Shown here: one piece after another, positions 3,662 through 63,972 of the stretch | Layout: each line of letters begins with the position of its first letter | Position numbering within the stretch: position 1 is the stretch's first letter | Source: Parcubacteria group bacterium | Lineage (GTDB): Bacteria; Patescibacteriota; Minisyncoccia; Moranbacterales; UBA2206 | DNA length: 64,000 nucleotides | Reading direction: 5' to 3' | NCBI GenBank assembly: GCA_041659505.1 | Contig: JBAZYF010000001.1 | Location: 35,654-99,653 of the forward strand | Program-made: the position numbers and the translations under genes | The notes under the pieces: model-generated | Databases searched by the model: none | Told to the model about the DNA's origin: nothing | Seen by the model: only the letters and a program-made list of their open reading frames with translations

Positions 3662-3962
3662 TCCTCCTCCGAAATATTGTTTTTGGATCAGAATTGATCC
3701 TATTTTTTTCTAACTATTTGGTTGTCAATGGACAATCCATAACAACCTCATGCCAATCCCGAAGTGTTCTGGACTGAATAAAAGATTGCTATTTGGACTT
3801 TTAAGATTAACATAGAACTCTAACAGAAAATTAGGCTTTTGTCAATCGTAATTGCCACGAAACCCATTTTATGCCTAAACAAGCCTTAATTAGCTAAAGC
3901 TTACCAGACTTTTTTAAAAATAGCCAAAATCTTCGCCAGGCCGGAAAAATGCCCAAAAAAGA

Positions 3963-18854: not shown

Positions 18855-19034
18855 TGTCATTCCCGCGAAGGCGGGAATCCAGGTTCCACTTGCCCTAAAC
18901 CCTGGAAAATCGAATTATAAATCCCCTAACTTCTTATTATCAACCAACAAATCCCGTTTTTCTTTTCTTATCACCTGAGGTGCCTGGATTCCCGCCGGAG
19001 TTTATCCTCGTGTAGACGGGGGCGGGAATGACAC
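18855..19034. mobile_element. MITE-like element, family 2, copy 1, between atpF and atpH
   Basis: TGTCATTCCCGCGAAGGCGGGAATCCAGGTTCCAC ... CACCTGAGGTGCCTGGATTCCCGCC ... GGGCGGGAATGACAC. A near-identical architecture occurs at 34207..34366. Confidence 0.7.
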
Positions 19035-20831: not shown

Positions 20832-20849
20832 AATTATTCATTACTTATA

Positions 20850-21006
20850 TCCCCTTCTCCATTAGGGAGAAGGTGCCCGAAGGGCGGATGAGGGAGAAGT
20901 CTTTCAATAACCACCCTCAATACTCATAGCACTTTTTTTATATCAACACCCTTTTCCCTCACCTGTCACGAGTACGTGACATCCTCTCCCTAAGGGCGAG
21001 GAGGAT
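20850..21006. mobile_element. MITE-like element, family 3, copy 1
   Basis: Left arm CCCCTTCTCCATTAGGGAGAAGGTGCCCGAAGGGCGGATGAGGGAGAAG. Right arm CCCTTTTCCCTCACCTGTCACGAGTACGTGACATCCTCTCCCTAAGGGCGAGGAGG. The arms are mutually inverted. A homolog lies at 52680..52837. Confidence 0.65.
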
Positions 21007-22768: not shown

Positions 22769-22794
22769 ATGAAAGTGTCATAAAAAAATATTGT

Positions 22795-22822
22795 CATTCC
22801 CGCGAAGGCGGGAATGACACAA
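22795..22822 (-). terminator. Solo family-2 palindrome acting as a metG terminator
   Basis: TGTCATTCCCGCGAAGGCGGGAATGACA is a 12-bp stem with a GAAG loop. On the minus strand it is followed by ATATTTTTTTATG. Confidence 0.55.
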
Positions 22823-22827
22823 GCAAG

Positions 22828-24255
22828 CTACTTAATTCTTTGAAATAAAACTTCATCCAGTTTTTTTGTTTCCAGTGCTTTTTTAATTTTCTCGGAAGTT
22901 CCAGGCATGAAAGGTGAAAGTAATTCTGAAATTAGCGAAATGTCTGTTAGTAATTTTTCCATCACTTCTCCAAATTTAACCTCGTCAGTTTTCGCCAGTT
23001 CCCATGGCTTATTATCTCCAATAAATTTATTATTATCCGCAATAATTTTCCAAATATCTGATAGCGCCTGATCAAATTCCATCTTGTTTAGAAAATTGGA
23101 AATTGAGTCATTCGGTCCGCCAACTGGCGGATTGAAATTTGGAATTTGAAATTTGAAATTCTCAGCAAGCTTAATCACTCGCGATAAAAGATTCCCCAAT
23201 CCATTCGCCAAATCAGCATTATATCTCTCAATTAATTTTTCCCAAGTAATATCAAAATCTTCACCAAAATTCGCCCCGGCTAAAAGCAGATAACGCGTTG
23301 CGTCTGTGCCGAACTTTTCTACCATTTCATAGGGTGAAATAACATTGCCAAGGGATTTGCTCATTTTTTGTCCATCGACCGTAATAAAACCATTCACAAA
23401 AACTTGCTTAGAATTAGAAAGTTTTGCTGACATGAGCATTGCCTGCCACATCGCTGATTGCTGGCGCAAATTATCCTTTCCGCAGACTTGCACTCCCGGC
23501 CAAAATTTTTCAAAATTTTCCAAGTTATTCGGCCAGCCCAGGGTTGAGATATAATTTACCAGTGCATCAAACCAAACATACATCACATGCTCATCATCAC
23601 CCGGAACCGGCACGCCCCAGGCCATCTTGCTTTTGAGTCGCGATATGCTAAAATCCTCCAGTCCCCTTTCCACAAAGCTCCGCACCTCATTCATCCTCTT
23701 GGCCGGCACGACAAAATCCGGATTATTCTTATATAATTCCAATAGCTTTTCTTGATAGGCAGAAAAGCGGAAAAAATAATTCTCTTCTTCGATGGTCTCA
23801 ATTTCCATATTGGGATGATCCGGACATTTCCCATCGATCAGTTCCGAATCAGTTTTTTCCAGCTCACACCCGACGCAATATTTTACCTTATAATTTTTCT
23901 TATATATATCGCCGTTCTTTTCACAAAGCTTCCAAAATTCCTGTACGGCTTTGATATGCTCCGCGTCTGTTGTTCGGATAAAGTTATCATAGCTCAAATT
24001 GAGCGAGGCTTTCAGTTTATCAAATTCCGGCACAACGCTATCACAATAACTTTGCGCGTCCATCCCCAGCTCAATTGCTTTTTGATAGATTTTTTGCCCA
24101 TGTTCATCTGTTCCAGTATTAAAAAACACTTCCTCACCTTGTTCGCGATGAAAGCGCGCCAGCACGTCCGCTTCAACAATTTCCTTGGCAAAGCCAATGT
24201 GTGGCTTAGCATTGACATAGGGCAACGTGGTTGTGATGTAAAATTTGTTTTTCAT
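22828..24255 (-). CDS. metG: Methionyl-tRNA synthetase, short form without a C-terminal domain
   Basis: LPYVNAKPHIGFA...ADV..RFHR..GEEVFF.TGTDEHGQKI aligns to the MetRS HIGH region. CxxC...C.DHP zinc knuckle. YVWFDALVNYIS. KMSKSLGN. Confidence 0.85.
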   Translation of the reverse strand: MKNKFYITTTLPYVNAKPHIGFAKEIVEADVLARFHREQGEEVFFNTGTDEHGQKIYQKAIELGMDAQSYCDSVVPEFDKLKASLNLSYDNFIRTTDAEHIKAVQEFWKLCEKNGDIYKKNYKVKYCVGCELEKTDSELIDGKCPDHPNMEIETIEEENYFFRFSAYQEKLLELYKNNPDFVVPAKRMNEVRSFVERGLEDFSISRLKSKMAWGVPVPGDDEHVMYVWFDALVNYISTLGWPNNLENFEKFWPGVQVCGKDNLRQQSAMWQAMLMSAKLSNSKQVFVNGFITVDGQKMSKSLGNVISPYEMVEKFGTDATRYLLLAGANFGEDFDITWEKLIERYNADLANGLGNLLSRVIKLAENFKFQIPNFNPPVGGPNDSISNFLNKMEFDQALSDIWKIIADNNKFIGDNKPWELAKTDEVKFGEVMEKLLTDISLISELLSPFMPGTSEKIKKALETKKLDEVLFQRIK

Positions 24256-33216: not shown

Positions 33217-34213
33217 ACTTCAAAAAATATTCCTTCGGGCGCATTTCCGCCTCAACCACCTTTTTCCAATCAAGATTGACTTCTGAAACACGCACCACCT
33301 TTCCCTCATTATAACATATTGGGTCAATCACGCGCGACTTGCAAAAAACTTGTGCGTCATAATTATTGGGATTATTCGCGTAACCCACTCGATTATTCAT
33401 TCGTTCCCAAAGTTTTTTTAGTATCTTATCTTTCTCCAAGAACTGGTTAATTTTTCCCAGCACTTCCACATCAGTCAGATATAAATCTTCTTTCGAAATA
33501 TATTTTTTTTCTATGGCACACTTCAAATAATCACCAGTCGTGCGAAACATTACTGCCGATTCGATCCCAGAATAAAAATATTTATTGGCATGAAAAAATA
33601 AATCAGAAAAATTTTGCGCAGAGCTATAATCCCCAAAAATCCACCGTCCATCTTTCACAATTAAACTAGCCAAAATGCTAGGGATTTTCTTGGCATATGC
33701 TGGCGCATATCTGTGGAAATGCCAAATGTCTCGCAGGGAATAATCAATCCGGTCAGCACAAGTATCGGGTAGACTGTTCTCTTTCAAAGGAAAATTTTTG
33801 TCGTTCAAAATATAGTCCAAATCAAAGCCATGCCTGGAAAGAATGGCCGGAATTTCAGAATTACCCACGAAGGAATTGAAAATATTATCCTGGTGCGTTT
33901 GCTCCTTTTGCGATCCTTCCGCAAAAACATAATCGGCGGAATGAGAAAAAGCACTGTGCGAAACATCATGGATAAGACCGGCAATCTGCTCAGAAAGTTC
34001 TGCACCAAATTGGCGCAAAAGCAGATAGGCGCCGACGGAATGCTCAAAGCGAAAATAAGTTGCTCCAGGAAAAAAAGGCTCCATATATCCATGTTGATCA
34101 ATGTCTTTAAGTCGCTGCATCGCGGGACAGGCCATCAACTCCAGAATTACCGGCTCAGTGATTTCATTTTCTCCGTAAATTGGATCAATGTATTGCATAA
34201 TACTATGTGTCAT
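33200..34213 (-). CDS. HD-domain metal-dependent phosphohydrolase
   Basis: H...HD motif (EHSVGAY...GLIHDVSHSAFSH). The start codon lies inside the family 2 element. Confidence 0.7.
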   Translation of the reverse strand: MTHSIMQYIDPIYGENEITEPVILELMACPAMQRLKDIDQHGYMEPFFPGATYFRFEHSVGAYLLLRQFGAELSEQIAGLIHDVSHSAFSHSADYVFAEGSQKEQTHQDNIFNSFVGNSEIPAILSRHGFDLDYILNDKNFPLKENSLPDTCADRIDYSLRDIWHFHRYAPAYAKKIPSILASLIVKDGRWIFGDYSSAQNFSDLFFHANKYFYSGIESAVMFRTTGDYLKCAIEKKYISKEDLYLTDVEVLGKINQFLEKDKILKKLWERMNNRVGYANNPNNYDAQVFCKSRVIDPICYNEGKVVRVSEVNLDWKKVVEAEMRPKEYFLKFAESL

Positions 34214-34366
34214 TCCCGCGAAGGCGGGAATCCAGGTTCCACTATTTATAAACCCTAAAAAATCGAATTATAAATTTTCTAACTTCTATTTTCTAATCAT
34301 TAAATCTCGTTTTTCTTTTTTTATAACCTGAGGTGCCTGGATCCCCGCCTCCGCGGGGATGACACG
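34207..34366. mobile_element. MITE-like element, family 2, copy 2
   Basis: TGTGTCATTCCCGCGAAGGCGGGAATCCAGGTTCCACT ... CCTGAGGTGCCTGGATCCCCGCCTCCGCGGGGATGACAC. Covers the HD-gene start codon and the last ~27 codons of the U32 gene. The U32 C-terminus reads ...RVIPAEAGIQAPQVIKK from the repeat. Confidence 0.7.
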
Positions 34367-43260: not shown

Positions 43261-43334
43261 TGGTCGGGCTGCCGAGAATCGAACTCGGTCTACATCCACC
43301 CCATGGACGCGTACTACCGGTATACTACAGCCCG
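43261..43334 (-). tRNA. tRNA-Pro (anticodon GGG)
   Basis: Reverse complement CGGGCTG-TA-GTATACCGGTAGTAC-G-CGTCC-ATGGGGT-GGATG-TAGA-CCGAG-TTCGATT-CTCGG-CAGCCCG-A-CCA. Clean cloverleaf with the anticodon loop aTGGGgt. Confidence 0.8.
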
Positions 43335-43342
43335 TGGCCTTG

Positions 43343-43413
43343 CGCCCGCCTGCAACGCTATGCGTAGCATTGCGGGCAGGTACTACCGCCATACTACACC
43401 CTGAAATCTAAAA
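43343..43413 (-). other. Pseudo-duplicate of the tRNA-Pro 5' half fused to a GC-rich palindrome
   Basis: The reverse complement reads GGGTGTAGTATGGCGGTAGTAC (compare the tRNA 5' end GGGCTGTAGTATACCGGTAGTAC), then CTGCCCGCAATGCTACGCATAGCGTTGCAGGCGGGCGC. There is no T-arm. Confidence 0.5.
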
Positions 43414-43431
43414 GGCAAAAAAGCACCCTTC

Positions 43432-44016
43432 TTATATCCCCAAAAATCTTTCCAACATTTCCGCCAGATTATGATCTTGTTTTATTTCTGGAATATATTT
43501 GAGTAGAATTCGGCGAATGATTACTGGATCTTCATTTTCGAGCGGAATGTGCACAAAGGGCGTGAGATAGCTTCTTGTGTGCAAGCTGATCACTTTAATA
43601 TATCGCGGATCATAAAAAATCCAAAAAGAGTGGATATTTTCAAATTCATATATTTCATTGCCAGCCAGAATGCCCTCGGGCACAATGCGAAAATCCAAAA
43701 TCCGCGGTTCCTTGCTTGAATACATATAGGCAACGATGCCGATAAGCACAAAAACAATCGCCATAATCGGATTATCTGTAAAAGTGGCATAGACAATAAT
43801 GGCCAGAAGGACAAGTGCGACATAGGAAAGGCGCCGTTTATTCTGCTCATACATTTCAAATTCCGGCGCGCTCCAATGCCAAAGCGCATCTTTGGAATAT
43901 TGTTCCAGCAATCCCTCACTCTCAGGCGCTGGAAGCATTTCCATTTCCGCTGGGCGACTTTTTAAAAACGCCTCGTTATCATCTCTAAAGGATTGTTTAT
44001 GGTTTTTTATATACAT
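43432..44016 (-). CDS. Hypothetical membrane protein
   Basis: 194 aa, two central TM helices (LSYVALVLLAIIVYATF...IMAIVFVLIGIVAYMY). Confidence 0.4.
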   Translation of the reverse strand: MYIKNHKQSFRDDNEAFLKSRPAEMEMLPAPESEGLLEQYSKDALWHWSAPEFEMYEQNKRRLSYVALVLLAIIVYATFTDNPIMAIVFVLIGIVAYMYSSKEPRILDFRIVPEGILAGNEIYEFENIHSFWIFYDPRYIKVISLHTRSYLTPFVHIPLENEDPVIIRRILLKYIPEIKQDHNLAEMLERFLGI

Positions 44017-44156
44017 TTTAATTACATTAAGGCAACGGTACCAATTTACTTAATGTTAACATATTAAGTAGAGACGAGGCAATGCCTCGTCTTTGTCTTG
44101 TCTTTACAATTGCCGGTTCAGCTGATAGTATTTAAAAGTTAAGATTTATCATATTT

Positions 44157-44275
44157 GGAGAGGTGGCTGAGTGGGCCGGATGCGATCAAACATCTGGCGG
44201 GTTGCAAAAGCAACCCCGGCAGACACGAAGCTACAGTTTTTTGACCGAGTCCGCCAACTGGCGGACGAGAAATAT
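44157..44275 (+). other. tRNA-Ser 5' pseudo-duplicate plus hairpin leader
   Basis: Starts ATATTTGGAGAGGTGGCTGAGTGG, identical to the first 18 nt of the downstream tRNA-Ser. It then diverges into hairpins CGGGTTGCAAAAGCAACCCG and GTCCGCCAACTGGCGGAC. No T-arm. Confidence 0.5.
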
Positions 44276-44361
44276 GGAGAGGTGGCTGAGTGGCTGAAAG
44301 CACCACACTGCTAACGTGGCAAGGGGTAAAACCCTTCGAGGGTTCAAATCCCTCCCTCTCC
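44276..44361 (+). tRNA. tRNA-Ser (anticodon GCT)
   Basis: GGAGAGG acceptor, long variable arm, anticodon loop cTGCTaa, T-arm GGTTCAAATCC, 3' acceptor CCTCTCC-G. Confidence 0.85.
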
Positions 44362-44365
44362 GCCT

Positions 44366-44640
44366 TCGCCACGCCGTAGCTTCAGCGAAGGCGGGCTTCG
44401 CCAAAGCTACGGCATGGCTACGGCGTGACAAGTCCGCTCAGGACTCAGCGAAGGCGGGCTTCGCCAAAGCTACGGCATGGCTACGGCGTGACAAGTCCGC
44501 TCAGGACTCAGCGAAGGCGGGCTACGGCATGGCTACGGCGTGACAAGTCCGCTCAGGACTCAGCGAAGGCGAGCTTCGCCAAAGCTACAGCGTAACTACG
44601 GCGTGACGCAGTCCGCAAGAAACCATGCGAAAGCGGGATT
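44366..44640. repeat. GC-rich tandem repeat array (about 63-bp unit, about 4 copies) after tRNA-Ser(GCT)
   Basis: The unit CAGCGAAGGCGGGCTTCGCCAAAGCTACGGCATGGCTACGGCGTGACAAGTCCGCTCAGGACT is repeated head-to-tail. One copy lacks TTCGCCAAAG. Confidence 0.75.
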
Positions 44641-44673
44641 TACTACGCTACAATATTCTCAAAATAAAAAGCT

Positions 44674-44904
44674 ATGTATTATGTCTATAGTCTAAAATGC
44701 AAGGATGGATATTATGTCGGTTGCACAGATAATCTTAAAGATAGAATAATTAGACATCAAAACGGCTACGTACCAGCAACTAAAAATAGACTGCCCTTGA
44801 AATTGGATTTTTATTTTGCAATGAACGATAAATATAAAGCATTTGAATTTGAAAAATACCTAAAATCAGGATCCGGACGTGCTTTTTCTGTGAAGCATTT
44901 TTAA
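44674..44904 (+). CDS. Small GIY-YIG nuclease-domain protein
   Basis: 76 aa. YYVYSLKCKDGYYVGCTDNLKDRIIRHQNG matches the GIY-(10-11)-YIG ...R...H..G core. Sits between the two tRNA-Ser genes. Confidence 0.65.
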   Translation: MYYVYSLKCKDGYYVGCTDNLKDRIIRHQNGYVPATKNRLPLKLDFYFAMNDKYKAFEFEKYLKSGSGRAFSVKHF

Positions 44905-44913
44905 AAAACAATG

Positions 44914-45000
44914 GGAGAGATGGCCGAGTGGTTTAAGGCAACAGTCTTGAAAACTGTCGTACTGTTAAAGGTACCGTGAGTTCGAATCTCACTCTCTCCG
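44914..45000 (+). tRNA. tRNA-Ser (anticodon TGA)
   Basis: GGAGAGA acceptor, anticodon loop cTTGAaa, long variable arm, T-arm GAGTTCGAATCTCAC, 3' acceptor TCTCTCC-G. Confidence 0.85.
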
Positions 45001-45176
45001 CCTTCGCCACGCTGAAGCGTGGCTTCGGCGTGACGCAGTCCGCCAGAAGCCATGCGAAAGCGGGATTCGCTACGCCGAAGCGTGGCTACGGCGTGACGCA
45101 GTCCGCCGTGGATACGCGTAGGCGAGCTTCGCCACGCCAGAACAAACATTCGGCGTGACGCAGTCCGCCAGAAGAA
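45000..45176. repeat. GC-rich repeat array after tRNA-Ser(TGA), related to 44366..44640
   Basis: CGGCGTGACGCAGTCCGCC occurs three times. It shares GTGACGCAGTCCGC(C/A)AGAA(G/A)CCATGCGAAAGCGGGATT with the end of the first array. Confidence 0.65.
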
Positions 45177-45194
45177 TAGTTAAAATAAATAATT

Positions 45195-45267
45195 GCGCTT
45201 ATAGCTCAGTGGATAGAGCGTCTGGTTGCGGTCCAGAAGGTCGCAGGTTCGATTCCTGCTAAGCGCA
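45195..45267 (+). tRNA. tRNA-Arg (anticodon reads GCG)
   Basis: GCGCTTA acceptor, D-arm GCTCAGTGGATAGAGC, anticodon stem TCTGG/CCAGA with loop tTGCGgt, T-arm GCAGGTTCGATTCCTGC, 3' acceptor TAAGCGC-A. Confidence 0.7.
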
Positions 45268-45270
45268 CAA

Positions 45271-50142: not shown

Positions 50143-50522
50143 ATTTTATCGTAGCCTCAAGGGGAGTCGCTCTTCATCCGTCCTTCGGCGTGCCTACGGC
50201 ACATGCCTCACTCCTCCCTCAGAGCCTGGGTTTTCAAAAAAGTGAAGCCCCGTCTGCTTGTCGCAGACAGGCTTTTTGAAATACCCGTCCGACTCTATAA
50301 AAAATTATAGCCCGAAAAACTCTTTGATTGGTACTGCTTTCAAAACAATATGTAGCCTCAAGGGGAGTCGGACCCCTCTTTTCAGGATGAAAACCTGATG
50401 TCCTAACCGATAGACGATGAGGCCAAAACCAAAACAAAGCAAAACTGCTTTTTTCAACTTATTTATCTAAAAAACATAATATCACAGCTTGAAAAATAAA
50501 TCCAGTGCTTGGCTGAAAAAGT

Positions 50523-52674: not shown

Positions 52675-52679
52675 TTTAG

Positions 52680-52837
52680 CTCCCCTTCGCCCTTAGGGAG
52701 AAGGTGGCCGAAGGCCGGATGAGGGAAAGGGCGTTAGATAAAATTATTACTTTCCTACACAGAACATTTTTATTTTTTAGTATCACCCTTGCCCTCACCT
52801 GTCCTTCGGACATCCTCTCCCGAGGGGAGAAGAGGAT
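52680..52837. mobile_element. MITE-like element, family 3, copy 2
   Basis: CTCCCCTTCGCCCTTAGGGAGAAGGTGGCCGAAGGCCGGATGAGGGAAAGGG ... CCCTTGCCCTCACCTGTCCTTCGGACATCCTCTCCCGAGGGGAGAAGAGG. The arms are mutually inverted and homologous to 20850..21006. Confidence 0.65.
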
Positions 52838-55470: not shown

Positions 55471-55516
55471 GCGCCGGTAGCTTCCGCCCGAGGCGGACAA
55501 GCAACGGATAGAGCGT
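55471..55516 (+). other. Pseudo-duplicate of the tRNA-Arg(TCT) 5' end with an inserted GC hairpin
   Basis: GCGCCGGTAGCT equals nt 1-12 of the downstream tRNA. It is followed by TCCGCCCGAGGCGGA and then GGATAGAGCG, which is the D-loop remainder. Confidence 0.45.
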
Positions 55517-55554: not shown

Positions 55555-55627
55555 GCGCCGGTAGCTCAGTGGATAGAGCAGTAGCCTTCTAAGCTATTGG
55601 TCGCAGGTTCGATTCCTGCCCGGCGCA
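55555..55627 (+). tRNA. tRNA-Arg (anticodon TCT)
   Basis: GCGCCGG acceptor, anticodon stem GTAGC/GCTAT with loop cTTCTaa, T-arm GCAGGTTCGATTCCTGC. Confidence 0.8.
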
Positions 55628-55641
55628 CACAAAAGAATATC

Positions 55642-62641: not shown

Positions 62642-62650
62642 TTTGCCTTC

Positions 62651-62753
62651 AATTTCTAATTTCTAAACAATTTCTAATTTATTAATGACTGAATTTTTAA
62701 ATTAAGTCATTTTTAAAATTGTTTGAAAATTGTAAATTGTAAATTGAAAATTT
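62651..62753. repeat. About 110-bp AT-rich leader repeat, copy 2, between pilC and the large pilin gene
   Basis: Homologous to 17621..17732 over its whole length. Confidence 0.55.
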
Positions 62754-63972
62754 ATTTTATATTATCCATAAGACTATACATCGGCTGAAGCATCGAAATC
62801 GCAAAAAATCCCACTGCACCTCCAATAAAAATCATTAACACTGGCTCTATAATCGAGGACATATTTTTTGATATTTGATCAATTTCATCTTCATAAAATT
62901 CCGCTAATTTTAAAAGGACAGTTTCTGTTTTTCCCGTTTCCTCCCCGACTTGAGCCATCTGCGCCATCAGCACCGGAAAGACTTTGGTATTTTTCTGGAT
63001 AACCTTACTGAGACTAATTCCCTTTTGAACATCTTCAATCCCCGCCCTGGTGGCTTCTTTGTAATAATAATTGGTCAGGGTATTGGAAATTATAGTCAGT
63101 GCCTCCACTACAGGCACTCCGCTGCGTAAAAGCGAGCTGTATATTCTAGCAAACCTGGCGCAATTGATTTTTATCACCATATTACTGACGACTGGGATAT
63201 TTATCATAGCAAAGCCCAGTATTTTTTTACCAAATTCTGTCGTCAAAAGAAATCTCGCCACAATGATTAAAAAAACAAAGGATACGGCCACCATAACTGA
63301 GTGTGCTCTTAAAAAATTGCTCATACCGATGATAAATTGCGTCGAGGCTGGCAATTGTACATCCATATCCGCAAAAACACCCATCATTTTTGGTAAAATA
63401 TATGTTAGCATCAGAACGGCAATGCCAATCATTGCCACAACAATCACTGCTGGATAAGTCATTGCGCCCTTGATCTTGCTCATCAGATTATGTTCTTTTT
63501 CCAATTGAACAGATAATATTTCCAAGATTTCCTCCAAATTTCCGCTCGACTCGCCCACTCGGATCATATTAACAAATAGATCTCCAAAAATTGCCGGGTA
63601 GCGCGCCAACCCATCAGCAAAAGTCATCCCAGATTGTATATCGTCAAAAACACTATTCAATATTTTTCGAAATCCTTTGTTCCTCGTTTGCAAGGATATA
63701 TTTTGGACGGCTCTGGAAATCGGTAATCCTGAAGCAACCATCACGCTTAGATTACGAGTAAACATCAACTTATCCTTAAGAGAGATACTAAAAAAACGAT
63801 CCAATAATTTCACTTGAGCATCACTCTTCTCCTTTGTTTTTAACTCCTTAAAAGAAGTCAAAATAAAACCATCCGAACGGAGCTGTGCCGCTAGATCTCT
63901 TTCATTTTTCACCTCTAGTTCTCCCGCTTTCGTCTCGCCAGAATAACTTTTTGCGCTATAGAACACCTTCAT
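62752..63972 (-). CDS. pilC: Type IV pilus inner-membrane platform protein PilC (GspF family)
   Basis: 406 aa. Two GspF-type repeats each followed by TM helices (AMTYPAVIVVAMIGIAVLMLTYILP..., EPVLMIFIGGAVGFFAISMLQPMYSL). Confidence 0.8.
   Translation of the reverse strand: MKVFYSAKSYSGETKAGELEVKNERDLAAQLRSDGFILTSFKELKTKEKSDAQVKLLDRFFSISLKDKLMFTRNLSVMVASGLPISRAVQNISLQTRNKGFRKILNSVFDDIQSGMTFADGLARYPAIFGDLFVNMIRVGESSGNLEEILEILSVQLEKEHNLMSKIKGAMTYPAVIVVAMIGIAVLMLTYILPKMMGVFADMDVQLPASTQFIIGMSNFLRAHSVMVAVSFVFLIIVARFLLTTEFGKKILGFAMINIPVVSNMVIKINCARFARIYSSLLRSGVPVVEALTIISNTLTNYYYKEATRAGIEDVQKGISLSKVIQKNTKVFPVLMAQMAQVGEETGKTETVLLKLAEFYEDEIDQISKNMSSIIEPVLMIFIGGAVGFFAISMLQPMYSLMDNIK

Follow-up and report, generated by a model that had tools for sequence, protein, structure and literature searches.

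Partial tRNA gene copies and GC-rich hairpins beside intact tRNA genes in a Candidatus Moraniibacteriota genome, possibly left by inserts that carry a replacement tRNA

This report concerns broken pieces of tRNA genes (stumps) that stand, joined to GC-rich hairpins, next to intact genes for the same tRNA in a 64,000-nucleotide (nt) stretch of DNA, here called the window, from a genome of Candidatus Moraniibacteriota in the candidate phyla radiation (CPR). Several described systems come close. SegB of phage T4 is a free-standing GIY-YIG homing endonuclease encoded in a phage tRNA cluster, which cleaves a tRNA gene in relatives without SegB and promotes inheritance of the adjoining tRNA region (PMC2330249). 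It has also been linked to local, segmental amplification of a tRNA locus (PMC13096335). As in T4, there is a GIY-YIG nuclease gene among tRNA genes in the CPR loci, but SegB is full-size with a DNA-binding part, whereas the CPR proteins, known from their sequences, are the catalytic domain only, with 76 to 100 amino acids (aa). T4 has none of the stumps, nested tRNAs, or hairpin modules, and the CPR case is in a cellular genome.

The rRNA genes of CPR bacteria hold many inserts, including GIY-YIG-encoding ones that are not introns and are found at the tips of stem-loops, and many others that are short and without an open reading frame (ORF) (PMC11270868). The inserts described here share with those the same radiation, the choice of structured-RNA genes, the loop positions, the occasional GIY-YIG gene, and the many short forms without ORFs. 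However, inserts in rRNA genes are either excised from the RNA or tolerated, whereas a tRNA insert destroys the gene, for which a second tRNA copy in or next to the insert compensates. The word tRNA occurs 0 times in that paper. Integrating mobile elements also leave fragments of tRNA genes (PMC9897764), and tRNA disruption by mobile elements has been described in Caldiarchaeum (PMC3293823). There too, a partial tRNA copy is left beside an intact gene after insertion of DNA, but those elements are kilobases in size, carry recombinases, and usually leave 3' repeats, whereas the CPR inserts are 45 to 700 nt, leave mostly 5' stumps with breakpoints in loops, and none was found to carry a recombinase.

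Archaeal disrupted tRNA genes, with noncanonical introns or split into parts with GC-rich complementary leaders (PMC4390854, PMC4033280), resemble the CPR loci in being interrupted in the D-, anticodon-, or T-arm and in having GC-rich complementary flanks. They differ in that the CPR exons do not rejoin (2 to 4 nt or a whole half is missing) and an intact copy is always adjacent. Among palindromic repeats, the repetitive extragenic palindromic (REP) elements and bacterial interspersed mosaic elements (BIME) of bacteria and the palindromic elements of Rickettsia are short and comparable to the window hairpins. The mitochondria of fungi have GC clusters and double-hairpin elements (PMC4478555). 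All of these are, like the window hairpins, GC-rich palindromes scattered in an AT-rich genome, often paired, polymorphic, and sometimes in frame. We know of no GC cluster, REP/BIME, or Rickettsia element that is tied to tRNA replacement or has a tRNA between its arms. In the searchable literature, we find no description of tRNA-breaking inserts that carry a replacement, of nested tRNAs, of stump-plus-hairpin scars, or of GIY-YIG-tRNA cassettes in CPR bacteria.

ARAGORN finds 9 tRNA genes in the window, all intact. Beside 4 of them lies a stump, namely a 5' stump at tRNA-Pro, tRNA-Ser(GCT), and tRNA-Arg(TCT), and a 3' stump at tRNA-Glu, with inserts of 45 to 182 nt. The anatomy of these loci, their ancestral positions and empty sites in relatives, the hairpin families, the intermediates, and the adjacency of nuclease and tRNA genes are observed directly. 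We lean, with some reserve, toward the view that the window stumps are scars of tRNA-targeted replacement cassettes that have been trimmed by recombination, the window showing only the late, decayed stage of the process, 4 times over. An earlier reading of the letters alone, referred to here as the sequence-only reading, had pointed to the three 5' cases, and their positions are borne out; the tRNA-Glu case was absent from it and was found by the same screen. In that screen, the 150 nt 5' of each tRNA gene were compared with 5,000 shuffles, using the first 30 nt of the tRNA for tRNA-Pro. The three 5' pseudo-duplicates are all beyond chance (p ≤ 4 × 10−4), window tRNAs that have no stump gave p of 0.19 to 0.95 as controls, and an apparent match for tRNA-Lys is only the neighboring tRNA-Arg. 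The regions might have folded into alternative complete tRNAs, but ARAGORN finds none there and an Rfam scan at E ≤ 5 has no match to tRNA or any other family in 43343-43413, 44157-44275, or 55471-55516.

The intact tRNA-Pro(GGG) gene is at 43261..43334 on the minus strand, as called by ARAGORN. A default whole-window Rfam scan, which reports 8 tRNAs, misses this gene, and under laxer filters it scores 49.8 bits. From comparison of alleles across relatives, it is designated type B. Its start is 8 nt beyond a 37-nt GC-rich palindrome (43343..43379, minus strand) composed of CTGCCCGCAATGCTACGCATAGCGTTGCAGGCGGGC and adjoining bases, which folds as a long hairpin and belongs to a dispersed hairpin family. 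On the far side of the palindrome is the stump, CAGGGTGTAGTATGGCGGTAGTAC (43380..43403, minus strand), comprising nt 1-24 of a tRNA-Pro with 4 mismatches to the adjacent gene. The 5' copy and palindrome of the sequence-only reading are both there. None of 5,000 shuffles reached the score of the stump against the 5' end of tRNA-Pro(GGG). The stump has 2 mismatches to the type A allele, carried by the closest relatives of the window, versus the 4 to the type B gene beside it. The leader ending in cttttagattt lies directly 5' of the stump in the window and directly 5' of the tRNA in comparison locus L007, and compared with L007, the intact window gene retains the ancestral 3' flank. The intact type B gene is thus most likely, by these alignments, a replacement copy, and 43380..43403 the remnant of an older tRNA-Pro gene. 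The cassette reading draws support from this because the stump is nearer to the allele of relatives than to its own neighbor.

At tRNA-Ser(GCT) (44276..44364, plus strand; ARAGORN and Rfam), the stump is an exact 18/18 match to nt 1-18 of the gene (44157..44174, plus strand), found by blastn at E = 6 × 10−5 window-wide and reached by 0 of 5,000 shuffles. A promoter-like site with an extended −10, TTTACA-17-TAGTAT (44103..44131, plus strand), conserved in relatives with and without the insert, lies approximately 26 nt upstream of the stump, which is probably transcribed. After the stump come 2 adjacent, conserved hairpins, hp1 (44175-44198) and hp2 (44199-44216), together 44175..44216 on the plus strand, that in 6 genomes, down to 55% identity in the neighboring RecG protein, have 99% of alignment cells paired and compensatory changes in 6 pairs. 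The sequence-only reading counted 2 hairpins with the 18-nt copy; there are 3, the last being GTCCGCCAACTGGCGGAC (44249..44266, plus strand), specific to the window genome at that spot, where relatives carry GGCTCTGCC. A D-stem-like pairing closing two of the hairpins was considered and dropped, its register not being conserved in L025 as read by eye.

The tRNA-Ser insert can be compared with empty sites. An insert of 119 to 124 nt is found in the window, L001, and L004, and is absent from L002 and L005 behind the same promoter, so that the alignment has one clean gap. In the empty-site genomes L002 and L005, the tRNA starts at what is the stump position in the window, and the leader element is also missing from L010 despite the same gene and promoter. 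Considering all genomes, there are at least 4 different, unrelated inserts at this gene, located at nt 10-18. In L025, the insert has a 66-nt hairpin core between perfect direct repeats of approximately 45 nt that are made up of the local leader and nt 1-18.

The tRNA-Arg(TCT) gene (55555..55628, plus strand; ARAGORN and Rfam) is preceded by a stump identical to its nt 1-12 (55471..55482, plus strand), a match reached in 0.04% of shuffles (p = 4 × 10−4). In place of the nucleotides CAGT of the old D-loop, there follows the hairpin TCCGCCCGAGGCGGA (55483..55497, plus strand), and after it GGATAGAGCG (55506..55515, plus strand), matching the rest of the tRNA-Arg D-arm as the remainder of the old copy. 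All 3 parts are as the sequence-only reading had them. The site is filled in the window and L003 and empty in L002, where the same leader is directly 5' of the tRNA. A stump of a different tRNA, Arg(GCG) in L015, has the TCCGCCCGAGGCGGA hairpin with a CAGGCAG tail in its D-loop, as in the window.

On the 3' side of tRNA-Glu(TTC) (50352..50424, minus strand; ARAGORN and Rfam), the arrangement is reversed. A 182-nt insert (50170..50351, minus strand), containing a decayed inverted T-arm copy, AGAGTCGGACGGG, and GC-rich hairpins, separates the gene from a stump of its last 19 nt, from the T-loop onward (50151..50169, minus strand). That stump is exact (19/19; 0 of 5,000 shuffles). It lies 182 nt past the end of tRNA-Glu, and another 8 nt separate it from the ATG of a downstream gene of the VTT/DedA family (PF09335 in a paralogous call). 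In L007, a single tRNA-Glu ends 2 nt before the same ATG. The locus has no insert in L007, a nested form in L002 and L006, and the window-type 182-nt insert and scar in L003 and L005. The layout of the window insert matches the 3' side of a complete element in L013, which is described below.

These relatives were recognized through the RecG encoded beside the window tRNA cluster, which has 55% to 90% identity to RecG of 29 loci mostly labeled Candidatus Moraniibacteriota or Moranbacteria. All comparison sequences are metagenome assemblies, and the stump pattern is present in many independent ones. Counting tRNA fragments of at least 14 nt within 400 nt of a tRNA, partial copies accompany 33 of 138 tRNAs in 30 Moraniibacteriota sequences versus 3 of 35 in 51 other loci; 2 of those 3 are from CPR, and the other, in the Clostridia locus L071, is a 3'-end repeat of the classical type. 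The 5' stumps end mostly at nt 12-24, which is the D-arm; some extend into the anticodon loop (nt 35-37) or as far as the T-loop border (nt 53), and the 3' stumps start at nt 38 or in the T-arm at nt 55-62. Because filled and empty relatives put the stump at the ancestral start or end of the tRNA, each stump marks the original end of a gene, with the insert inside the old gene. Because there are at least 4 unrelated inserts at tRNA-Ser(GCT) and such varied states at one tRNA-Glu locus, tRNA scarring is a recurrent process and not one old accident.

What a less decayed stage may look like is seen in L001, L002, L006, L019, and L021, where a complete tRNA (Arg, Glu, or Pro) is nested in a broken copy of the same tRNA. 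In these genome cases (n = 7), the inner tRNA is between perfect inverted arms of 13 to 16 bp that start with CCCC and end with GGGG, and the outer copy is at the ancestral position and is a different allele from the inner one, with differences in both acceptor strands included. A scan of metagenomes for such arms gave at least 120 loci; among the matches listed, 29 have a tRNA between the arms, with 16 anticodons, so nested loci total at least 36 (7 genome and 29 metagenome). In every one of the 27 nested cases studied in detail, the broken gene is cognate to the inner one and the alleles differ, and in the 20 metagenome cases read in tRNA orientation, the flanks are 2 cognate tRNA halves or decayed remains of them. 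The insertions break the part coding for the D-, anticodon-, or T-loop, with 2 to 4 nt of the target lost. The arms are perfectly Watson-Crick paired (368 pairs), with a closing pair of G.T in 18 elements and A.C in 9. Both orientations relative to the cargo occur, depending on the site hit, and the 4-nt linkers are nearly constant as CNYG...TGAA or the reverse complement TTCA...CAAG.

Several other properties of the elements with CCCC arms are worth recording. In L021 (5380-6020, minus strand), a single old tRNA-Pro has 2 inserts of this kind, the one in the anticodon loop being a complete tRNA-Pro(CGG) and the one in the T-loop a 117-nt cargo that is not a tRNA; adjoining it is a second nested tRNA, Pro(GGG), with different arms. 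A large family of elements of approximately 106 to 130 nt with the ends CCCCGTACCACGG...CTGTGGTACGGGG occurs in L086, L088, L099, L101-L103, L114, L122, L129, L132, L135, L136, L139, L142, L144, L145, and others, on contigs that are GC-richer and apparently not CPR. It has matching 4-nt repeats on both sides (among the matches listed, TAAA/TAAA at least 27 times and TGAA/TGAA at least 11), and its appearance is that of a classical miniature transposon whose ends relate it to the CPR elements with a tRNA cargo. No simple target-site rule for CCCC-arm elements could be derived, clean 4-nt duplications being found only in that non-CPR branch. Rfam has no known RNA family for these elements or for the hairpins. 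A scan of viral contigs for CCCC-arm cassettes had 0 matches with a gap range of 74 to 104 nt, which the longest forms would escape, and in the collected loci, there are no ORF-enclosing arm pairs 135 to 6,000 nt apart that would indicate a long autonomous element. An intron or split tRNA of the archaeal type was considered and rejected: there is no bulge-helix-bulge, the 4-nt linkers form no 4-bp central helix, 2 to 4 nt of the tRNA are missing, and the absence of a 3' exon at the window stumps argues against it as well. To our knowledge, a splicing endonuclease is not to be expected in bacteria. A group I intron was likewise set aside, with no Rfam intron match and inserts too short for a catalytic core of over 200 nt.

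A second kind of complete form includes a nuclease gene. The sequence-only reading had proposed looking for a GIY-YIG-associated element, and such nuclease genes do turn up at stump/tRNA junctions and near tRNAs. In L013, nt 1-56 of an old tRNA-Glu, with a double TCCGCC hairpin in its anticodon loop, are followed by an 84-aa GIY-YIG gene, a new tRNA-Glu 6 nt on, a terminator, an inverted T-arm copy, a GC-rich module, and finally nt 61-76 of the old tRNA-Glu. L064, from another CPR phylum, has a tRNA-Ser(GCT) stump of nt 1-16, a hairpin, a GIY-YIG gene, and 6 nt later, an intact tRNA-Ser(GCT). In L196 and L019, a GIY-YIG gene and an intact tRNA stand next to a second, almost identical tRNA copy that is damaged only by a hairpin in its D-loop and by shortening of its 5' end; in L196, the duplication spans the tRNA and at least 45 nt of 3' flank. 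The GIY-YIG ORFs of these 4 loci all match PF01541 as domain-only proteins, and the GIY-YIG proteins have no recognizable DNA-binding domain. In 2.1 Mb, 9 of 15 GIY-YIG ORFs are within 150 nt of a tRNA versus 5% expected (P = 1.3 × 10−8, some being orthologous so that the effective count is slightly lower). As is typical of homing cassettes, they adjoin or sit inside a tRNA gene and are polymorphic between relatives. In L006 (1745-1835) and L007 (9340-9916), the tRNA-Ser(TGA) allele diverges strongly and has an HNH endonuclease gene (PF01844) immediately 5' of it, with a fragment (rve) of an IS3-type transposase just before it in L007. Judged by this layout, HNH gene and tRNA would form a second kind of nuclease-plus-tRNA unit.

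The window has its own GIY-YIG gene in the tRNA-Ser cluster. It encodes a 76-aa domain-only protein (44674..44904, plus strand; PF01541 in Pfam, E = 1.4 × 10−11), is 9 nt upstream of the intact tRNA-Ser(TGA) (44914..45002, plus strand; ARAGORN and Rfam), and is absent from the corresponding spacer in L001 and L004. Between tRNA-Ser(GCT) and this gene is a GC-rich tandem array of approximately 4 units of 52 to 63 nt (44365..44650, plus strand) that begins with TTCGCC at the 3' end of the tRNA and reaches the nuclease gene; in L005 and L064, a single such unit separates tRNA-Ser from a GIY-YIG gene. A second GC-rich array with 3 units ending in GGCGTGACGCAGTCCGCC follows tRNA-Ser(TGA) (45003..45175, plus strand), and the first 32 nt of it have a 30/32 match to what follows tRNA-Ser(GCT) and leads to the GIY-YIG gene in L064, which is from Wolfebacteria. 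Because of that match, the arrays look like amplified copies of a module linked to the nuclease gene. The longer trailer (TTCGCCACGCTGAAGCGTGGCT.CGGCGTGA...) at L064 1330-1470 is nearly identical to window 45003-45075 though the RecG proteins are only 44% identical, and this suggests horizontal spread or else strong constraint on the GC module. The cluster of Pro, Ser, Ser, and Arg tRNAs (43261-45268) with a neighboring gene for 194 aa varies in order and orientation relative to L001, L002, L004, and L007, whose RecG is 81% to 90% identical. The changes include inversion of the segment from tRNA-Pro to tRNA-Arg, and the rearrangement end points are at tRNA genes.

The hairpins themselves share a (G)TCCGCC...GGCGGA(C) core, as the sequence-only reading had recognized. 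TCCGCC-N(2-12)-GGCGGA occurs 3 times in the window versus 0.02 expected, GTCCGCC recurs in the array after tRNA-Ser(TGA), and TCCGCC-loop-GGCGGA hairpins are found at 27 sites across the collected loci, often as tandem double hairpins. That reading had also offered a tRNA-associated repeat family; the repeat families are real, but they are not bound to tRNAs. The palindrome at tRNA-Pro has a copy identical in 37/38 positions in an AT-rich intergenic stretch of L084, a metagenome contig without tRNAs. The 16-nt hairpin TCCGCCAACTGGCGGA at 23116-23131, identical to the one at 44250, is in frame inside the methionyl-tRNA synthetase (MetRS) gene (ORF 22828-24255, minus strand), where it is translated as NPPVGGP in the linker that joins the catalytic and anticodon-binding domains. 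In-frame palindromic elements are known from Rickettsia, and the MetRS hairpin resembles them. In L017, a Moranbacteria locus, a 30-nt tandem double hairpin, TCCGCCAAAGGCGGATCCGCCTTTGGCGGA (3807-3836), is in frame in recG. Because copies lie in a contig without tRNAs and inside the coding sequences of MetRS and RecG, we assign the window hairpins to dispersed families of GC-rich palindromes in a genome rich in AT, and do not regard them as peculiar to tRNA leaders. They resemble miniature inverted-repeat transposable elements and REPs in being short, noncoding, structured as inverted repeats, and dispersed. They show no consistent target-site duplication, and neither a REP-associated tyrosine transposase nor an IS200-type transposase was seen in the sequences analyzed.

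A scheme that would connect these forms begins with small selfish inserts that may repeatedly enter D-, anticodon-, or T-loop-coding segments of tRNA genes in the CPR lineage. Those that survive would supply a functional copy of the tRNA that was hit, or the part of it that is missing, and the cell would keep that tRNA. In complete form, an insert would have the gene for a GIY-YIG-domain-only protein of approximately 80 aa, a new tRNA, and GC-rich palindromic modules; in miniature form, it would be a tRNA alone between inverted-repeat arms of 12 to 17 bp. The old and new tRNA copies would then be long direct repeats, and recombination between them could delete the nuclease gene along with the longer duplicated part. 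Entry in the D-arm would produce a short remnant of the old gene on the 5' side and a long one on the 3' side, and recombination would leave the short stump, hairpins, and one intact gene, with entry in the T-loop giving the mirror image. The remaining stump, 12 to 24 nt for D-arm entries and 17 to 20 nt for T-loop entries, would be too short to recombine and would stay joined to the old promoter or flank, beside the hairpin or hairpins and the intact gene. The targeting of loops may possibly come from recognition of extruded or single-stranded cloverleaf DNA. Recombination between long repeats sparing the short piece would account for the stump lengths and for stumps at ancestral gene ends; the same trimming model would account for anticodon-loop entries still having both halves and for the window tRNA-Glu locus appearing as the 3' half of L013 minus the nuclease gene. 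From sequence comparison, we infer the order of events, the nuclease as the cutter, the trimming by recombination, and the reason for the loops.

Several observations weigh against the cassette reading. The hairpins are also inserted far from tRNAs and may be independent passengers. The window is without a nested cassette or CCCC-arm element, so the link from scar to complete form is drawn from similar architecture, and its sole GIY-YIG gene is downstream of tRNA-Ser(GCT) and not between the stump and its gene. The allele argument at tRNA-Pro turns on 2 diagnostic positions only. The tRNA-Ser insert, with covarying hairpins kept down to 55% RecG identity, could mean a selected RNA structure, and the L025 repeat, which includes the local leader, looks like a local duplication and not a foreign cassette. 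The last point belongs to an account in which slippage or unequal crossing-over duplicates a tRNA, or its 5' part with leader, and a GC-rich palindrome is then inserted and the copy erodes, with no cassette or nuclease. We judge it unlikely, but it explains the L025 repeats around their 66-nt core and the 3' flank duplicated in L196, and it fits the identity of the tRNA-Ser stump to its neighbor gene in each genome, including a variant specific to L025, and the occurrence of the hairpins as dispersed elements in ORFs and intergenic DNA. It fits poorly with outer and inner alleles that differ in the nested cases through both acceptor strands, with a tRNA-Pro stump resembling another allele, and with GIY-YIG or HNH genes exactly at such junctions. 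Nor does simple slippage predict breakpoints concentrated in loops.

The sequence-only reading had thought first of repeated site-specific integration and excision. Insertion scars at tRNA genes are indeed what the empty sites and ancestral stump positions indicate, but the integrase-type mechanism fares badly, and we regard it as improbable that these are attL/attR-like duplications from elements with tyrosine or serine recombinases, decayed to a few tens of nt in the manner of cis-mobilizable elements. Direct repeats of tRNA segments around foreign DNA are the classic signature of such integration (PMC9897764, PMC3293823) and do bound the window inserts; the tRNA-Glu scar repeats the 3' end, which is the usual integrase pattern, and the Clostridia control locus L071 has just such a 3' repeat. 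Against this, it is the 5' end that is repeated in 3 of the 4 window scars and in most scars of the lineage, the window inserts are tiny and hold no ORF, 2 to 4 nt of the target are lost at junctions, and a single crossover cannot yield nested forms that keep both old halves around a complete, different inner gene. Pfam finds no recombinase or transposase among 10 small or uncharacterized window ORFs, which are ATP synthase subunits, an NADH-dehydrogenase subunit, NUDIX proteins, and similar. Around the Pro-Ser-RecG cluster in L201, the genes called encode glycosyltransferases, a protein with a VTT domain, GIY-YIG, and RecG. For tRNA-Glu and tRNA-Arg(TCT), the flanking sequence was read as ORF translations only. 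Another proposal of the same reading, a regulatory leader, finds little support. It would make the 5' mimic and hairpins a selected part of the pre-tRNA that, for example, competes for the 3' acceptor strand to control RNase P, or protects the transcript. The conserved promoter with probable transcription, the mimic kept identical to the tRNA over 18 nt, and predicted folds that pair the mimic with the tRNA 3' strand suit that idea, yet what speaks for it directly comes down to the compensatory changes that keep 2 hairpins, and a mobile palindrome would conserve such pairing also. Close relatives with this promoter and tRNA lack the element, other genomes have unrelated inserts at this gene, Rfam has no matching family, and hairpins of this kind are also found in ORFs and in DNA without tRNAs; we find a leader function improbable.

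The window has further intergenic repeats, which we list for completeness. A GC-rich hairpin, TTGTCATTCCCGCGAAGGCGGGAAT(GACA), is present in 3 copies (18854-18996, 22791-22815, and 34207-34349), 2 of them within a 142-nt repeat of 85% identity, and all are intergenic around ATP synthase and other housekeeping genes. Two intergenic elements of approximately 160 nt (20845-21000 and 52676-52836) have inverted-repeat ends of approximately 50 nt (TCCCCTTC.CC..TAGGGAGAAGGTG.CCGAAGG.CGGATGAGGG...) and are each predicted to be one long hairpin; there is a weak, chance-level Rfam match at 52681-52836 to a miRNA-like family. With the GC part of the tRNA-Glu insert (50170-50230), they have the CCGAAGG.CGGATGA motif in common. 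Other repeats of 60 to 110 nt with 69% to 94% identity are in or near the ATP synthase region (14397-14457/17745-17805; 14771-14842/18124-18195/18241-18312; 17631-17745 versus 62648-62758).

To return to the replacement cassette, a bolder form of it, which we put forward tentatively and as more doubtful than not, is that in CPR bacteria a GIY-YIG-only nuclease and/or palindromic arms may insert specifically into tRNA loop-coding segments, maybe by recognizing cloverleaf or cruciform DNA. The spare tRNA would save the host, the broken halves would serve as homology arms to spread the cassette between species, and horizontal turnover of tRNA alleles would result. tRNA genes are commonly regarded as passive sites at which large elements land, and here they apparently have been invaded on the inside and replaced repeatedly, in genomes that keep one copy of each tRNA. 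For practical purposes, stumps and nested genes can mislead tRNA annotation and the completeness estimates of CPR genomes. If the cassette reading is true, an essential RNA gene present in one copy is open to a selfish element that is no self-splicing intron but brings a spare, and there is a route for horizontal exchange of tRNA alleles. It would also suggest a job for the abundant GIY-YIG-domain-only proteins, and the peculiarity of inserts in CPR rRNA genes would extend to their tRNA genes.

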